This document shows positions 3,146 through 8,381 of a DNA stretch of 39,163 nt, piece after piece. Position 1 is the stretch's first letter. Each line of letters begins with the position of its first letter. The DNA is from Kayfunavirus PDP351P4: sequence record OZ035749.1, one strand, 5' to 3'. The notes below the pieces were generated by a model. It searched no databases. It worked only from the letters and a program-made list of their open reading frames with translations, and was not told where the DNA came from. The position numbers and the translations under genes are program-made.

Positions 3146-3497
3146 TACTGTAGTCAAGGACTTTAGGTAACACCTTAATAGAAGCTCACTTAGGGTCATC
3201 CTACTTACTGGTCTATCCTAGTGTCGCCTGACCTACGGTCCTTGACCTACAGTGGCTGTGGCCTACAGCAGTGACGATGAGTTTTGGACCAAAAGTTTGA
3301 GACCACATCTCACAGTTCAAGAACCTCAAGTCTCCCCATAGGCCCTCTTTCAGTCCAGACCAAAGGCCCTACCCCAGTCTATCATAAGGTTGGACCGATG
3401 GTCAATACTTAAGGTCGACGATAGGTCTAGGCTATGGCTGGAGGTCAGGACGATAGGTAGGGACTATTGGTCTTCTTTGAGTCTCTATCTGTATCAG

Positions 3498-3610
3498 ACC
3501 ATAGGTCACAACCATAGGTCACAACCATAAGTCATAACCTACATCTCACAACCATAAGTCATAACCTACAGCCTCAACCATAAGACACCTACAGTCTAAA
3601 CCTACAGTTA
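3498..3610. repeat. tandem array of about 8 degenerate 13-14 bp units (ACCATAGGTCACA / ACCATAAGTCATA / ACCTACAGCCTCA ...) in the genome-end/left-end region
   Basis: read directly; first two units are identical; related ACCTACRG units also at about 3231-3270. Confidence 0.7.
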
Positions 3611-3720
3611 ATAGACACAATGGCTATAGACTTAAGGTCTAAGACGTGTTAGTCAAAGACTATATCCTCTTACACCATGGGGCCGACGATGGCTCAATCA
3701 ATATTATTTCAACTTACCTA

Positions 3721-3750
3721 TTGACTATAGGTCTCGACTATGGCCTAATA
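3721..3750 (+). promoter_or_regulatory. candidate host sigma70 early promoter (weak)
   Basis: TTGACT at 3721 with a poor -10 (CCTAAT/CTAATA) about 17-18 bp downstream. Confidence 0.25.
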
Positions 3751-3860
3751 GCTTCCGTCAACACGACACGGCAACAACCGGATAGTGAAGACGCCGTGTC
3801 ATCCCGGTTAAGTAGACAGCCTGATAAGTCATACGAACAACAGGCAGATGACAGAAGTAG

Positions 3861-3895
3861 TTGACAAGATGTAAGACTTAACGTAGTATGATTCA
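3861..3895 (+). promoter_or_regulatory. candidate host sigma70 early promoter (A-type)
   Basis: TTGACA (3861-3866), 17-bp spacer, TAGTAT (3884-3889); upstream of gene 0.3 where T7 carries A1-A3. Confidence 0.5.
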
Positions 3896-3928
3896 CCAAG
3901 TAGTACAGCAAGCGAGTTAAGAAAGTGA

Positions 3929-3963
3929 TTGACAAGCTGGTTTGACTGTAGTAACTTATACGA
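3929..3963 (+). promoter_or_regulatory. candidate host sigma70 early promoter (A-type, weaker -10)
   Basis: TTGACA (3929-3934), 17-bp spacer, TAACTT (3952-3957). Confidence 0.35.
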
Positions 3964-4080
3964 CAAGCAAGATTAGTGAGTCCCAACACTGAAACGGGAT
4001 AGCACGGCGACGACAGCCAATGCGAATGCTCTTTAACAATTTGGATAAACTCTTAATGTGCGCCGATAGCGACTAACTAC

Positions 4081-4110
4081 AGGGTCTTTGAGTCTACATC
4101 TGAAGGCCCT
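4081..4110 (+). promoter_or_regulatory. RNase III-site-like hairpin variant upstream of gene 0.3 (R0.3 position)
   Basis: AGGGTC ... GGCCCT stem with wobble pairing, same architecture as the AAGGTCA/TGGCCTT elements. Confidence 0.35.
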
Positions 4111-4155
4111 GACTGATAGTCACTAACACATACTTAACTTTGAGAGGATATAACT

Positions 4156-4488
4156 ATGGAACGTAACGCTAACGCATACTATGACCTGCTGGCTGCAACC
4201 GTTGAAGCATTTAACGAGCGTATTCAGTGCGACGAAATAGCTGAAGGCGATGACTACTGCGATGCGCTGCATGAAGTCGTAGACGGTCAGGTTCCGCACT
4301 ATTACCACGAGATTTTCACGGTGATGGCTGCGGATGGTATCGACCACGAGTTCGAAGACTCTGGGCTGATGCCTGAGACCACGGACGTAACGCGTATACT
4401 ACAAGCTCGCATCTATGAGGCACTGTATAACGATGTGTCTAATAGCTCGGATGTAGTTTGGTTTGAGGCTGAAGAGGACTGCGAGTGA
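4156..4488 (+). CDS. ocr: Ocr, anti-restriction DNA-mimic protein (T7 gp0.3-like)
   Basis: 110 aa, acidic; [43 protein letters not shown] aligns closely with remembered T7 Ocr ([43 protein letters not shown]); first early gene. Confidence 0.9.
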   Translation: [110 protein letters not shown]

Positions 4489-4649
4489 TGGTAACTTATG
4501 GTCTCTACCAGCACCACGTAACCAACGCCCGGATTATGGTCAAGACCGGGCAGTTTAAGCATGACACGATGTTAGAGTTCCTGAAAGCGGTCTACGAGGG
4601 CCGCAAACGTATTCACGATAGTCTACACGCTGAGGATAAAACACAATGA
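4488..4649 (+). CDS. small early protein, unknown function (gene 0.4-0.6 region)
   Basis: 53-aa ORF whose ATG overlaps the ocr stop (TGATG); translationally coupled chain of small ORFs typical of T7 class I genes. Confidence 0.4.
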   Translation: MVTYGLYQHHVTNARIMVKTGQFKHDTMLEFLKAVYEGRKRIHDSLHAEDKTQ

Positions 4650-4795
4650 AACGATACGCTATACACATTCCGGGATGGTGTTACACAATGACTTGCTACG
4701 GATACAATGAGAGAGATGCGCGGTCTCGCTTCCGCGATCAGCAAGGATTCGGTAAACGTCTGCCTAATGGTACAGCTATCTGGGAGATTGACTAA
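4646..4795 (+). CDS. small early protein, unknown function
   Basis: 49-aa ORF with ATGA overlap to the previous ORF. Confidence 0.4.
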   Translation: MKRYAIHIPGWCYTMTCYGYNERDARSRFRDQQGFGKRLPNGTAIWEID

Positions 4796-4796
4796 C

Positions 4797-4922
4797 ATGT
4801 ACCAGATAACTTATAGCAGTGAACAGGAGTTCTACGATGGGTGCTACGAGATGATGAAGCGCGGGGCTTGCTACGTGGCTAATCACCATAGCCTGACCAT
4901 AACGCTGACAGGCGGGTACTGA
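4797..4922 (+). CDS. small early protein, unknown function
   Basis: 41-aa ORF (MYQITYSSEQEFYDGCYEMMKRGACY...) starting 1 nt after the previous stop; C-terminal part of track ORF 4707..4922. Confidence 0.35.
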   Translation: MYQITYSSEQEFYDGCYEMMKRGACYVANHHSLTITLTGGY

Positions 4923-4933
4923 GTGATAGACGA

Positions 4934-4959
4934 GAGGTCATCGACTGATAGGTGGCCTC
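4934..4959 (+). promoter_or_regulatory. RNase III processing-site-like hairpin (R0.5 position)
   Basis: GAGGTCA ... TGGCCTC stem, same architecture as the sites at 314, 9167 and 16194. Confidence 0.45.
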
Positions 4960-5078
4960 AAAGATTACCACTTGCATTAATAGGGGTTAACTATGAGTGT
5001 GGGATATTGGGTATGCCTAGCGCCAGTTATCTTGCTGATAGGGTATGGGCTATACGATTGTATTAAACGGAAATCACT

Positions 5079-5276
5079 ATGAGTCTTGCACTATTGATAG
5101 CAATAGGCTATGGACTTATCGCCTACATGCTGGTGAGAGACATCAACAAGGCACGTAAAGTCTACAAATTCAACTATGTACGTCTGGGCCGCTGGACTGT
5201 ACGTCAACCTAACGGACGATTCATGCGCAACTTAGCGAACGTCTGGGATATAGCAACACTTGGGAGCAAACTGTAA
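5079..5276 (+). CDS. small early membrane-like protein, unknown function
   Basis: 65 aa with hydrophobic N-terminus (LALLIAIGYGLIAYMLV) and basic C-terminal part. Confidence 0.45.
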   Translation: MSLALLIAIGYGLIAYMLVRDINKARKVYKFNYVRLGRWTVRQPNGRFMRNLANVWDIATLGSKL

Positions 5277-5602
5277 TGAGCAAGTCTTACGGGATTAATC
5301 TGGTACACTCTATGGACGCAGAAATGAACATGTTAAGCCTACTGGCTACCGGGTATCGTCACGGAACGTCAAGTCACTCCGCACGTCAACAGCAGGAGAG
5401 GGACCGGGTACTGCAAGCAAGACTCCGGGCTGAGGGCCATAAGTCCGAACTGATGTGTCTGGCGTATGGTGGACAACCAATCACCGAAGATGGTAAACTT
5501 CTGGTCTCAGGCTGGAAGGCGATAGACCAACGGTCAACCATCAAGCACACGACTCACGGTGACTTCAGTCATCTTCATGCTAACCCGCTGATATGCAAGT
5601 AA
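5276..5602 (+). CDS. early protein, unknown function (occupies the gene 0.7 position but much shorter than the T7 0.7 kinase)
   Basis: 108-aa ORF, start overlaps the previous stop; no kinase motifs recognised. Confidence 0.45.
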   Translation: MSKSYGINLVHSMDAEMNMLSLLATGYRHGTSSHSARQQQERDRVLQARLRAEGHKSELMCLAYGGQPITEDGKLLVSGWKAIDQRSTIKHTTHGDFSHLHANPLICK

Positions 5603-5617
5603 CTCTGACTTAACTAT

Positions 5618-5641
5618 CACTATAGGACTCAAGGTCTAAGA
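5618..5641 (+). promoter_or_regulatory. phage RNAP promoter immediately upstream of the RNAP gene
   Basis: TTAACTATCACTATAGGACTC, about 65 bp upstream of the gene 1 ATG; followed by a GACTCAAGGTC RNase III-like motif. Confidence 0.65.
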
Positions 5642-5699
5642 CTCCAAGTGAAAGACCAAAGAGACTTTAAGTGAAAGACTAATAACAAGGACTTTAAGT

Positions 5700-8381
5700 A
5701 TGAGCGTCATCTCTATTGATAAGCACGACTTCTCTGATGTGTCAAGCGCCATTGAGCCGTTTAACCTGCTGGCTGACCACTACGGGCAAGACCTTGCAGT
5801 CAAACAGCTTCAGCTTGAGCATGAGGCATACACTGAAGGCGAGCGACGTTTCATCAAGAACCTTGAGCGACAGACTGAGCGCGGGGAACTGGCAGACAAT
5901 CAGGTCGCCAAGCCTTTGATGCAGACTCTTGTACCTAAGATTGCGCAAGCCGTCAGGGAGTGGCATGAAGGTCCAGACGGGAAGCTGTCAACCTCTCGTC
6001 CTAGCGTAGCGTTCACCATGTTGAGCACTGAAGAGAAGGCCGTTAAAGATCGCTCTCTACGCATCTCCTGTGAGTCTGCTGCGGTTATCATACTGAAGGT
6101 CATCCTCTCCAAGCTGGTCAAGCCTGAAGGGATACCGATTACACCGATGGCCTCCGCGATAGGTCGCACACTTGAGGACGAAATCCGCTTCGGTCGCATC
6201 CGTGATAAGGAGAAGGAGCACTTCAAGAAGGCGATAGCTGAGAACCTGAACAAGCGTGCCGGGGCATCCTACAAGAAAGCCTACATGCAAGCGGTTGAGA
6301 CATCCATGCTGGAGCAGGGTCAACTGGAAGATGCGTGGGGGACTTGGAGTCCTACCGAGGCGGTACACGTTGGCATCAAGATGCTTGAGATTGTCATCCA
6401 GTCTACACAACTGGTCGAGCTTAAGCGGTACGGTGCTGGCAATGCAGCGGCTGACGTAGAGATGGTCCACCTGTCAGACTTCTGGGTAAAGAAGATGGCA
6501 CAACGAGGATTCAGCCTTGCGGGTATCGCTCCAGTATACCAACCTTGCGTCGTTCCACCTAAGCCGTGGACTGGTGTCGTAGGCGGGGGGTACTGGGCTA
6601 AAGGTCGCAGACCGCTACCACTGATTCGCTTAGGGTCTAAGTCTGCGGTGGCACGTTACGAAGACGTGTACATGCCTGAAGTCTATGACGCTGTGAATAT
6701 CATCCAGAATACACCTTGGAAAGTGAACAAGAAGGTTCTGGACGTGGTGAACATGGTCGAGAAGTTGAACAACACGCCTATTGATGACATCCCTCAGATG
6801 GAGCCACTGAAGCCTGAAGACTATGCGGGCGAGACTGAAGAGGAACTCAAGGCATGGAAGAAGGCTGCTGCTGGTATCTACCGCCGAGAGAAGGCCCGGC
6901 AGTCACGCAGATTGTCACTGAGCTTTATAGTTAACCAAGCGAACAAGTTCTCTCAGTTCAAAGCCATCTGGTTCCCGTATAACATGGACTGGCGCGGTCG
7001 CGTCTACGCTGTGCCGATGTTCAACCCTCAGGGTAACGACATGCAAAAGGGTCTCCTGACTCTGGCAGTCGGTAAGCCTATTGGTGCTGATGGTTTCAAA
7101 TGGCTGAAGGTCCACGGTGCAAACTGCGCGGGTATTGATAAAGTAACCTTCGAGGAGCGCATCAAGTGGGTGGAAGACAACCACGATAACATCATGGCTA
7201 CCGCTAAGGCACCGATGGATAGCATTGAGTGGTGGGGCAAGTTAGACTCTCCGTTCTGCTTCCTTGCGTTCTGCTTCGAGTATGCTGGCGTAATGCACCA
7301 CGGTTTGTCTTACTCCTGCTCGCTGCCGATAGCTTTCGATGGGTCCTGCTCTGGGATTCAGCACTTCAGCGCGATGCTTCGTGATCACATCGGTGGACAT
7401 GCAGTAAACCTGACGCCATCCGGTAAGGTCCAAGATATCTACCGCATCGTGTCTGACCGAATTGAGGAGGAGCTTAAAGTCCTTCTGGTTAACGGTACGG
7501 ATAACGAGATGGTGACTCACGAGGACAAGAAAACGGGTGAGATTACCGAGCGTCTCAAGCTGGGGACACGAGAGCTGGCCCGTCAGTGGCTGACCTACGG
7601 TATGTCTCGCAAGGTCACTAAGCGTTCAGTCATGACTCTGGCCTACGGGTCAAAAGAGTATGGCTTCGCAGACCAAGTGTACGAGGACATCGTGATGCCA
7701 GCGATTGACTCAGGGTCTGGCGCTATGTTCACTGAACCAAGCCAAGCGTCTCGCTTCATGGCTAAGATGATTTGGGAAGCTGTGAGCGTGACCGTAGTTG
7801 CTGCGGTTGACGCGATGAAGTGGCTTCAAGGTGCCGCCAAGCTGCTGGCTGCTGAAGTGAAGGACAAGAAGACTGGAGAAATCCTGAAGCCTTGCCTTCC
7901 GGTACACTGGGTAACACCTGATGGTTTCCCGGTCTGGCAGGAATACCGCAAGAAGGATACCACTCGTCTGAACCTGATGTTCTTAGGGTCATTCAACCTT
8001 CAGCCTACAGTCAACAAAGGCACGAAGAAAGAGCTGGACAAGCACAAGCAGGAGTCAGGCATTAGCCCGAACTTCGTCCACTCACAAGATGGAAGCCACC
8101 TACGCAAGACTGTAGTCCACACTCACCGCAAGTATGGCGTGATGTCATTCGCAGTGATTCACGATAGCTTCGGGACCATCCCGGCTGACGCTGAGTTCCT
8201 GTTCAAGGGAGTCCGTGAGACGATGGTCGAGACATACCGCGACAACGATGTGCTGCTGGACTTCTACGAGCAGTTTGAATACCAGCTTCATGAGAGCCAG
8301 CGCGACAAGTTGCCTGAGCTTCCGAAGAAAGGTAAACTGAATATAGAAGACATCTTGTCTTCAGACTTTGCATTCGCTTAA
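5700..8381 (+). CDS. single-subunit DNA-directed RNA polymerase (T7 gp1-like)
   Basis: 893 aa (T7 RNAP 883 aa); gene 1 position; C-terminus ends FAFA as in T7 RNAP; read as T7 RNAP-like along its length. Confidence 0.96.
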   Translation: MSVISIDKHDFSDVSSAIEPFNLLADHYGQDLAVKQLQLEHEAYTEGERRFIKNLERQTERGELADNQVAKPLMQTLVPKIAQAVREWHEGPDGKLSTSRPSVAFTMLSTEEKAVKDRSLRISCESAAVIILKVILSKLVKPEGIPITPMASAIGRTLEDEIRFGRIRDKEKEHFKKAIAENLNKRAGASYKKAYMQAVETSMLEQGQLEDAWGTWSPTEAVHVGIKMLEIVIQSTQLVELKRYGAGNAAADVEMVHLSDFWVKKMAQRGFSLAGIAPVYQPCVVPPKPWTGVVGGGYWAKGRRPLPLIRLGSKSAVARYEDVYMPEVYDAVNIIQNTPWKVNKKVLDVVNMVEKLNNTPIDDIPQMEPLKPEDYAGETEEELKAWKKAAAGIYRREKARQSRRLSLSFIVNQANKFSQFKAIWFPYNMDWRGRVYAVPMFNPQGNDMQKGLLTLAVGKPIGADGFKWLKVHGANCAGIDKVTFEERIKWVEDNHDNIMATAKAPMDSIEWWGKLDSPFCFLAFCFEYAGVMHHGLSYSCSLPIAFDGSCSGIQHFSAMLRDHIGGHAVNLTPSGKVQDIYRIVSDRIEEELKVLLVNGTDNEMVTHEDKKTGEITERLKLGTRELARQWLTYGMSRKVTKRSVMTLAYGSKEYGFADQVYEDIVMPAIDSGSGAMFTEPSQASRFMAKMIWEAVSVTVVAAVDAMKWLQGAAKLLAAEVKDKKTGEILKPCLPVHWVTPDGFPVWQEYRKKDTTRLNLMFLGSFNLQPTVNKGTKKELDKHKQESGISPNFVHSQDGSHLRKTVVHTHRKYGVMSFAVIHDSFGTIPADAEFLFKGVRETMVETYRDNDVLLDFYEQFEYQLHESQRDKLPELPKKGKLNIEDILSSDFAFA

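Follow-up and report, generated by a model that had tools for sequence, protein, structure and literature searches.

Dunn and Studier are said to have described the class I operon of phage T7 with its RNase III sites R0.3, R0.5 and R1 in 1983, and in 2013 Kiro et al. reportedly recognised T7 Gp0.4 as an inhibitor of FtsZ. Here we describe the corresponding early block of Kayfunavirus PDP351P4 (OZ035749.1), in which six small open reading frames (ORFs) of 53, 49, 41, 29, 65 and 108 amino acids (aa) lie on the plus strand at 4488-5602, between the anti-restriction gene ocr and the gene of the phage RNA polymerase (RNAP). All positions refer to the window, i.e. the whole stretch of 39,163 nucleotides (nt) that was analysed, a Kayfunavirus genome of the K1F/EcoDS1 group within the Studiervirinae.

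The closest described protein is T7 Gp0.4, which according to Zhang et al. consists of two antiparallel helices. Single substitutions of V15, V22, W28, M32, L35 or Y39 are listed there as causing the loss of toxicity and of FtsZ-dependent signalling, and the exchanges W28L and W28A as abolishing toxicity and FtsZ binding, while substitutions of A12, T14, L16, S19, R23 and K36 affected the activation of CapRelEbc alone (Zhang et al. 2026; PMC13423816). Within the Kayfunaviruses, infection with K1F, a model phage for therapy, mislocalises FtsZ and yields filaments with about four Z-rings per cell. On the basis of BLAST searches it was stated that K1F 'lacks the 0.4 genes' and that the novel inhibitory peptide 'is currently unknown' (Dhanoa et al. 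2022; PMC9372555). Our literature searches found no later report naming the K1F division inhibitor, and those on gp0.35, gp0.38 and gp0.45 and on screens of T7-like early proteins returned no functional data.

The early region itself is already known: more than 200 genomes have it annotated, for the most part as 'hypothetical'. Over its first 25 kb the window shares 93-95% nucleotide identity with several Kayfunavirus genomes, and the region 3600-6000 aligns with many records of the genus at 90-94% identity over 85-90% of the length. In EcoDS1, K1F and other Kayfunaviruses gp0.3, gp0.35, the 29-aa peptide, gp0.6, gp0.38, the phi promoter and gene 1 occur in the same order as in the window, and these early proteins are 70-97% identical to its own. 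The window differs from its relatives in an additional rare 49-aa gene, present in none of 25 sampled related loci (22 from IMG/VR and three from GenBank) and also found in vB_Eco_1RS, in a 41-aa gene carried by 16 of the 25, and in a 108-aa N-terminal variant of gp0.38.

A Gp0.4 family member directly after ocr

The block at 4488-5602 is, in our judgement, probably a standard Kayfunavirus class I early operon on the T7 plan whose 53-aa product is a Gp0.4-like FtsZ blocker. The gene in question and its upstream neighbour are:

4156-4488, plus strand: ocr (gene 0.3), DNA-mimic anti-restriction protein of 110 aa (Pfam PF08684, E = 1.4e-29; phrog_2568)
4488-4649, plus strand: 53-aa protein of the Gp0.4 family ('gp0.35' in EcoDS1, '0.4' in CR44b), predicted FtsZ-binding division inhibitor (phrog_5058)

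The ocr product is 95% identical to EcoDS1 gp0.3 and 50% identical to T7 Ocr. It overlaps the 53-aa ORF by 1 nt in the motif TGATG at 4488, as is the case for genes 0.3 and 0.4 of T7. The original prediction had regarded the small ORFs after ocr as not recognisably any of the usual host-takeover or anti-defence factors. This view cannot be maintained for the 53-aa ORF, which falls into the T7 Gp0.4 FtsZ-inhibitor family (PF26807, hhalign 91.5%), nor for the 49-, 41- and 65-aa ORFs, which are homologous to early genes of Yersinia phage AP10 (ORF4, ORF6 and 'gp0.6', respectively).

The 53-aa protein is 84% identical to EcoDS1 'gp0.35', and the same gene has been named '0.4' in Citrobacter phage CR44b. 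Direct comparison with T7 gp0.4 by blastp gave 36.6% identity over 41 aa. In the PHROG classification the ORF belongs to phrog_5058 and matches phrog_7202 weakly (E = 0.0065); T7 gp0.4 belongs to phrog_7202 and in turn matches phrog_5058 (E = 9e-5). In a collection of 5.8 billion proteins, the precomputed Pfam assignment PF26807.1 was carried by all 47 homologs of the ORF and by all 43 homologs of T7 gp0.4. The alignments of the two families were matched by hhalign with a probability of 91.5% (E = 8.7e-7) over 41 columns; the only gap is a single residue in the turn between the helices. AlphaFold2 (AF2) run on the joint alignment predicted a two-helix hairpin with helices at residues 8-19 and 25-52 and a predicted local distance difference test score (pLDDT) of 86.6, and the nearest BFVD structures to this model were small proteins of other T7-like phages. 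On these alignments the 53-aa protein is a diverged member of the Gp0.4 family. A search of PDB sequences with the Gp0.4 profile gave no match. Scans of the six ORFs with Pfam, NCBIfam and PADLOC yielded nothing above noise; the 53-aa ORF went unmatched there because the PF26807 model was missing from the Pfam release scanned.

The homology was partly anticipated by database curators, both in the CR44b gene name and in PF26807. What is new is that the first ORF of the block is assigned to the Gp0.4 family and that its predicted FtsZ face is preferentially conserved.

Predicted inhibition of FtsZ

The six T7 residues tied to FtsZ by Zhang et al. correspond to V11, V18, H25, L29, L32 and Y36 of the 53-aa protein. 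At the level of the family consensus five of these six positions are identical to T7, as compared with 11 of the 35 other columns (one-sided Fisher p = 0.026), and the six CapRel-contact residues given in the same source are kept at one position only. The window protein itself has four of the six FtsZ-set residues plus an exchange of M to L, and His in place of the essential W28; its position 29 is Leu, which is Met in 77% of the Kayfunavirus family. Like T7 Gp0.4 it comprises about 50 aa, is encoded directly after ocr, falls under PF26807 and is predicted to form a helical hairpin, and the equivalents of V15, V22, M32, L35 and Y39 are conserved. It differs from the T7 protein by one extra residue in the inter-helix turn and by a longer basic C-terminal tail.

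In the mechanism that we propose, the 53-aa protein would act like T7 Gp0.4 as a two-helix hairpin that binds monomeric FtsZ on its synergy-loop face. Binding would block polymerisation of the Z-ring and stop the division of the infected cell, and such a block would account for the mislocalisation of FtsZ and the filamentation seen with K1F. The balance tips modestly towards the 53-aa protein being an FtsZ inhibitor, and its best reading is that of the K1F-type division inhibitor. We put forward more tentatively, as possible though short of probable, that this inhibitor keeps the FtsZ-binding face while the face read by CapRelEbc has been replaced. If true, Kayfunaviruses could block host division without triggering CapRelEbc guard immunity. 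The 53-aa protein would then offer a natural variant for separating the two surfaces of Gp0.4, FtsZ binding and CapRelEbc recognition.

Several points weigh against the division-inhibitor reading of the operon. Identity to T7 Gp0.4 is about 35%, the enrichment at the interface was calculated from six residues, and RNase III cleavage at the hairpin at 4921-4973, described below as part of the T7 plan, is predicted by homology. The equivalent of W28, a residue essential in T7 Gp0.4, is His in 96% of the Kayfunavirus family, and FtsZ binding may therefore be altered or lost. The low identity and the replacement of W28 by an invariant His are also what would be found if the protein were a true Gp0.4 homolog with a new target or without activity against FtsZ. 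Division would in that case be blocked by a different early product; candidates are the 29- and 65-aa membrane proteins encoded just downstream, or a K1F-specific gene such as phrog_7319. K1F has one additional early gene, of 55 aa, with no counterpart in the window. We consider this explanation unlikely, since five of the six FtsZ-face residues have been kept while the rest of the surface diverged, and their heptad spacing has been retained with a single one-residue indel in the loop. Moreover, the family is under purifying selection, with a ratio of non-synonymous to synonymous polymorphism (pN/pS) of 0.31 when pooled against the window across the 25 related loci.

An FtsZ-inhibiting Gp0.4 homolog would bear directly on K1F. 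The K1F genome encodes a member of the 53-aa ORF family (YP_338091) at 1623-1772, directly after gene 0.3. The published statement that K1F lacks gene 0.4 is contradicted by the profile evidence, which places a diverged gene 0.4 right after ocr, and the question of the K1F inhibitor is thereby turned into a one-gene experiment.

Layout of the early operon and its accessory genes

The further features of the early block and its surroundings are:

3308-3486: homolog of the terminal repeat, mapped from the EcoDS1 annotation
3721-3757, 3861-3898 and 3929-3962, plus strand: three host (sigma-70) early promoters, 90-100% identical to 'host RNAP promoter' features of EcoDS1
4067-4125, plus strand: R0.3-like hairpin upstream of ocr, putative RNase III site (folding, T7-like architecture)
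4646-4795, plus strand: 49-aa basic protein, mobile accessory gene (phrog_13225)
4797-4922, plus strand: 41-aa protein (phrog_33188)
4921-4973, plus strand: RNase III-type hairpin, homolog of T7 R0.5 by alignment with T7 1427-1485
4993-5082, plus strand: 29-aa predicted single-pass membrane peptide at the position of T7 gene 0.5 (hydrophobicity 1.99)
5079-5276, plus strand: 65-aa protein with predicted N-terminal membrane helix and basic tail (isoelectric point 11), 'gp0.6' of EcoDS1, K1F and AP10 (phrog_2385)
5276-5602, plus strand: 108-aa orphan ('gp0.38' of EcoDS1) with a conserved core of 83 aa and a variable N-terminus (phrog_7066)
5608-5630, plus strand: first phage-RNAP promoter, 5' of gene 1, 100% identical to the EcoDS1 'phi' promoter
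5700-8381, plus strand: gene 1, T7-type RNA polymerase of 893 aa, 62% identical to T7 gp1 over its full length

The stretch 4488-5602 belongs to class I, transcribed by the host RNAP, because all of it is located downstream of the host promoters and upstream of the first phage promoter; this assignment follows from the map and matches established T7 biology. The second host promoter contains a match to TTGACA-17-TAGTAT at 3861-3889, and about nine more partial copies of the phi promoter are found elsewhere in the window. The operon would run from the host promoters, the R0.3-like hairpin, ocr, the Gp0.4-like gene and two small accessory genes through the R0.5-type hairpin, the membrane peptide at the gp0.5 position, the AP10-type 'gp0.6' and the orphan gp0.38 to the phage promoter and the RNA polymerase gene. 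In common with the T7 operon it has host promoters, a hairpin preceding ocr and, separating the 0.4-side from the 0.5-side genes, a homolog of R0.5, as well as the 1-nt overlap of 0.3/0.4 and the 4-nt overlap of 0.5/0.6. It differs by the absence of the 0.7 kinase and of a T7-type gp0.6 and by two extra small genes 5' of R0.5. The EcoDS1-type terminal repeat homolog at 3308-3486 places the physical left end near 3308. The window is circularly permuted relative to the usual T7 convention, with the large terminase subunit at 850-2613.

The sequence 4915-5000, which includes the sole gap in the ORF chain (70 nt), folds as an irregular hairpin at 4921-4973. It aligns with T7 1427-1485, between T7 genes 0.4 and 0.5, a segment which we take to be the R0.5 RNase III site ascribed to the 1983 work of Dunn and Studier. 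Common to both hairpins are a lower stem of GAGUGAUAGAC paired with GAUUAYCACUU and an upper stem of AGGUC paired with GGCCU. RNAalifold on a 14-sequence alignment including T7 gave 18 consensus pairs, four of them with compensatory changes; alignment columns 26/36, for example, are C-G in seven sequences and U-A in seven. Relatives have one copy of the hairpin per locus at the R0.5 position. The hairpin at 4921-4973 is thus, by alignment and covariation, a homolog of T7 R0.5. An Rfam scan of 3500-5800 gave no match, and the identity of the hairpin was therefore set by direct alignment with T7. Upstream of ocr, 4040-4155 folds at -30.8 kcal/mol (z = -3.4) with the architecture of the T7 region upstream of gene 0.3, and 4067-4125 is a putative R0.3-like RNase III site. 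T7 also has an R1 site before gene 1, likewise ascribed to the work of 1983; no convincing R1-type hairpin was found between the phage promoter and gene 1 (5603-5699, z = -0.7). Since the R0.3-like and R0.5-type hairpins bracket ocr and the 0.4-side genes, the layout mirrors that of T7, with an R0.3-R0.5 segment holding ocr and the 0.4-side genes and a second segment that opens with the membrane peptide at the gp0.5 position.

The chain of six ORFs after ocr had been predicted from the sequence as translationally coupled, with membrane segments in two of its members, and the reanalysis bore this out. All six ORFs were found at the expected positions on the plus strand, and the stop/start offsets from ocr onward are -1, -4, +1, 70, -4 and -1 nt. 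Because these offsets are -1 to +1 or -4 everywhere else, the chain is coupled apart from the 70-nt gap. Each ORF starts with ATG and has a purine-rich, Shine-Dalgarno-like motif resembling GGAG or GAGG 7-14 nt upstream. Membrane segments were predicted only for the 29-aa and 65-aa proteins (Kyte-Doolittle maxima over 17 residues of 1.99 and 2.39, respectively). Pooled across the related loci, pN/pS was 0.21 for ocr, 0.24 for the 41-aa, 0.26 for the 29-aa, 0.33 for the 65-aa and 0.32 for the 108-aa ORF. The 49-aa ORF, missing from that sample, had values of 0.05 against AP10 and 0.04 against vB_Eco_1RS. With pN/pS between 0.04 and 0.33 throughout, all six ORFs are, on the evidence of codon-level conservation, real protein-coding genes under purifying selection.

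A 47-aa ORF with a GTG start, annotated in EcoDS1 at 1493-1636 with 'unknown product' and corresponding to 4923-5066 on the plus strand of the window, was rejected as a coding candidate. It uses another frame than the 29-aa peptide, extends over the RNase III hairpin, is broken in seven of 17 relatives and has a pN/pS of 0.56; it is probably a spurious mis-annotation. The 29- and 41-aa ORFs are themselves very short and lack a Pfam match, and the EcoDS1 annotators chose that other frame over the 29-aa region, yet it is hardly credible that they are chance ORFs in a non-coding leader, as the 29-aa ORF is intact with its ATG in 18 of 18 loci, the 41-aa ORF is intact in all 16 loci that carry the gene, both show low pN/pS, and the alternative frame is broken and crosses a conserved hairpin.

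The five ORFs besides the Gp0.4-like gene are conserved, early, non-structural accessory genes. The 49-aa protein is 92% identical to ORF4 of AP10 (Apdecimavirus; 78% nucleotide identity), 96% identical to the copy of vB_Eco_1RS and about 50% identical to gene products of myophages with genomes of 140-150 kb, e.g. Cronobacter phage PBES02 (Certrevirus). By these comparisons its gene is small, strongly constrained and moves between unrelated phage families. Counterparts of the 49-aa gene lie at 1501-1650 in locus L027 and at 1501-1653 in locus L029 of our collection. The 41-aa protein shares 45% identity and its PHROG (phrog_33188) with AP10 ORF6. The 65-aa protein is 97% identical to EcoDS1 gp0.6 and 33% identical (E = 2e-9) to AP10 gp0.6, which is placed in the same PHROG; phrog_2385 is widespread in T7-like phages of Klebsiella, Erwinia and Yersinia. 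T7 gp0.6A, the MreB inhibitor, belongs to phrog_8393; it gave no blastp match to the 65-aa ORF, and phrog_2385 and phrog_8393 showed no cross-matches. By sequence, then, the 65-aa protein is unrelated to T7 gp0.6A, and the name 'gp0.6' used in EcoDS1 and K1F fits the AP10-type gp0.6 only. PDB sequence searches with the 49-aa and the 65-aa ORF returned no match. The 29-aa peptide showed no sequence match to T7 gp0.5 and is too short for a profile comparison; its position after R0.5, its 4-nt overlap into the next gene (as in T7 0.5/0.6A) and its hydrophobicity match T7 gp0.5, and it is a positional analogue of that protein only.

The AP10 homologs of the 49-, 41- and 65-aa ORFs are arranged in the order seen in the window and fall into the same PHROGs. 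AP10 differs from the window in having a T7-type gp0.4, extra genes (ORF3 and 0.45) and a full 0.7 kinase, and in lacking the 108-aa family. The five ORFs would be non-essential genes with accessory or host-takeover roles, recruited from a pool common to the Studiervirinae. Alternatively, several of them, especially the mobile 49-aa, the 41-aa and the 108-aa genes, could be anti-defence genes directed against specific immune systems rather than takeover factors. Their position beside ocr, where the genome is most mosaic, would suit such a role, as would the modular N-termini of the 108-aa family and the 49-aa gene, which is under very strong purifying selection and recurs at 92% identity in another genus and at about 50% in unrelated large myophages. 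We find this rather doubtful, as no similarity to characterised anti-defence or defence proteins was detected in Pfam, PHROGs, NCBIfam and PADLOC or among PDB and BFVD folds, and host-takeover morons would be expected to be just as patchily distributed.

The gp0.7 kinase cassette and the 108-aa orphan

The suspected lack of a gp0.7 kinase was confirmed: tblastn of T7 gp0.7 against the window gave a best E of 2.4, and the same T7 search retrieved gp1, gp1.2, gp1.3, gp1.6-gp1.8, gp2, gp2.5, gp3, gp3.5, gp4, gp5, gp5.7 and gp6. The accompanying notion that only a 108-aa ORF sits in the place of the kinase stands as regards the T7 0.7 map position; it fails as regards descent, since the ORF has no similarity to gp0.7, and in relatives such as SFPH2 and vB_VIPECLMC06 the kinase lies upstream with the 108-aa gene retained. 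Map position is the sole likeness between the 108-aa gene and T7 gp0.7, and the short kinase of relatives sits at another place than that of T7.

A short gp0.7-type kinase was present in seven of the 25 related loci. The Kayfunavirus short kinases measure 244-255 aa and align to residues 4-219 of T7 gp0.7 only; that of Shigella phage SFPH2 (1883-2650) is 31% identical to these residues. In Enterobacter phage vB_VIPECLMC06 the order is ocr, the Gp0.4-like gene, the 41-aa gene, a 244-aa kinase, the 65-aa and the 108-aa gene. The slot of the kinase cassette in these phages is found between the 41-aa gene and the R0.5-type hairpin, where two RNase III-type hairpins bracket it and the 65-aa and 108-aa genes remain unmoved. 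The short kinase of locus L112 lies at 1369-2103, and the corresponding slot of the window is 4922-4993. This arrangement suggests that cassettes are gained and lost at RNase III-type hairpins. At 60% identity or more the kinase type occurs in about 44 phage records, as compared with 223 for the 108-aa family. Being without the kinase, as the window is, appears to be the majority state of the genus and one side of a cassette polymorphism rather than a trait special to this phage. Neither ocr nor the Gp0.4-like gene is present in any of the seven sampled loci with the kinase; vB_VIPECLMC06, which combines both genes with the kinase, is an exception.

The 108-aa ORF was also considered as a remnant of the C-terminal shutoff domain of gp0.7 and rejected. 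Blastp gave weak echoes (a GDF motif and a basic helix), and hhalign against a gp0.7 alignment of 76 sequences from 80 loci, tested at full length and with the C-terminal domain, returned probabilities of 0.9% and 0.3%. In T7, gp2 and gp5.7 are inhibitors of the host RNAP. Although the 108-aa protein is basic and helical and its gene occupies the T7 0.7 slot between the gp0.6-position gene and gene 1, it is very improbable that it is a functional replacement or remnant of the gp0.7 kinase/shutoff function, given the hhalign probability below 1%, the presence of gp2 and gp5.7 homologs in the window and the co-occurrence of the gene with a short kinase of gp0.7 type in relatives resembling SFPH2 or vB_VIPECLMC06, because of which it is not regarded as a kinase replacement.

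The 108-aa ORF matched phrog_7066 with E = 5e-45, and its conserved 83-aa core ends in GDFSHLHANPLICK. Across the gp0.38 family this fixed core is combined with at least four interchangeable N-terminal modules, giving products of 86, 108, 130 and 139 aa; the module of the window occupies 5276-5350. The 86-aa form of gp0.38 in vB_Eco_1RS is preceded by a distinct Cys-rich ORF of 73 aa. The 153 close homologs of the 108-aa protein were all found on phage contigs of about 40 kb, and a profile search of 1.84 billion representatives returned 14 clusters only, all of the same small family. A PDB sequence search with the profile gave no match. The AF2 model is helical with a pLDDT of 67, and Foldseek comparison with PDB and BFVD recovered its own family only, a negative that is soft because the model is weak. 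Judged by its homologs, the 108-aa ORF is an orphan restricted to the Kayfunaviruses.

Several GenBank records of Kayfunaviruses carry ocr under the label 'protein kinase', among them locus L113 at 169-501 (Vec13, MH400309, 1610-1942) and locus L114 at 1-501 (IME177). These labels do not indicate a gp0.7 homolog. Two database errors are thus corrected here, ocr entered as 'protein kinase' and an ORF placed across an RNase III site.

The left end of the sampled relatives comes in alternative cassettes. In SFPH2 (locus L011, 622-1074), the one kinase-bearing locus looked at closely, there is an S-adenosylmethionine (SAM) lyase (PF23780) instead of ocr, and this left end also includes a DUF7300 protein and a helix-turn-helix (HTH) protein.

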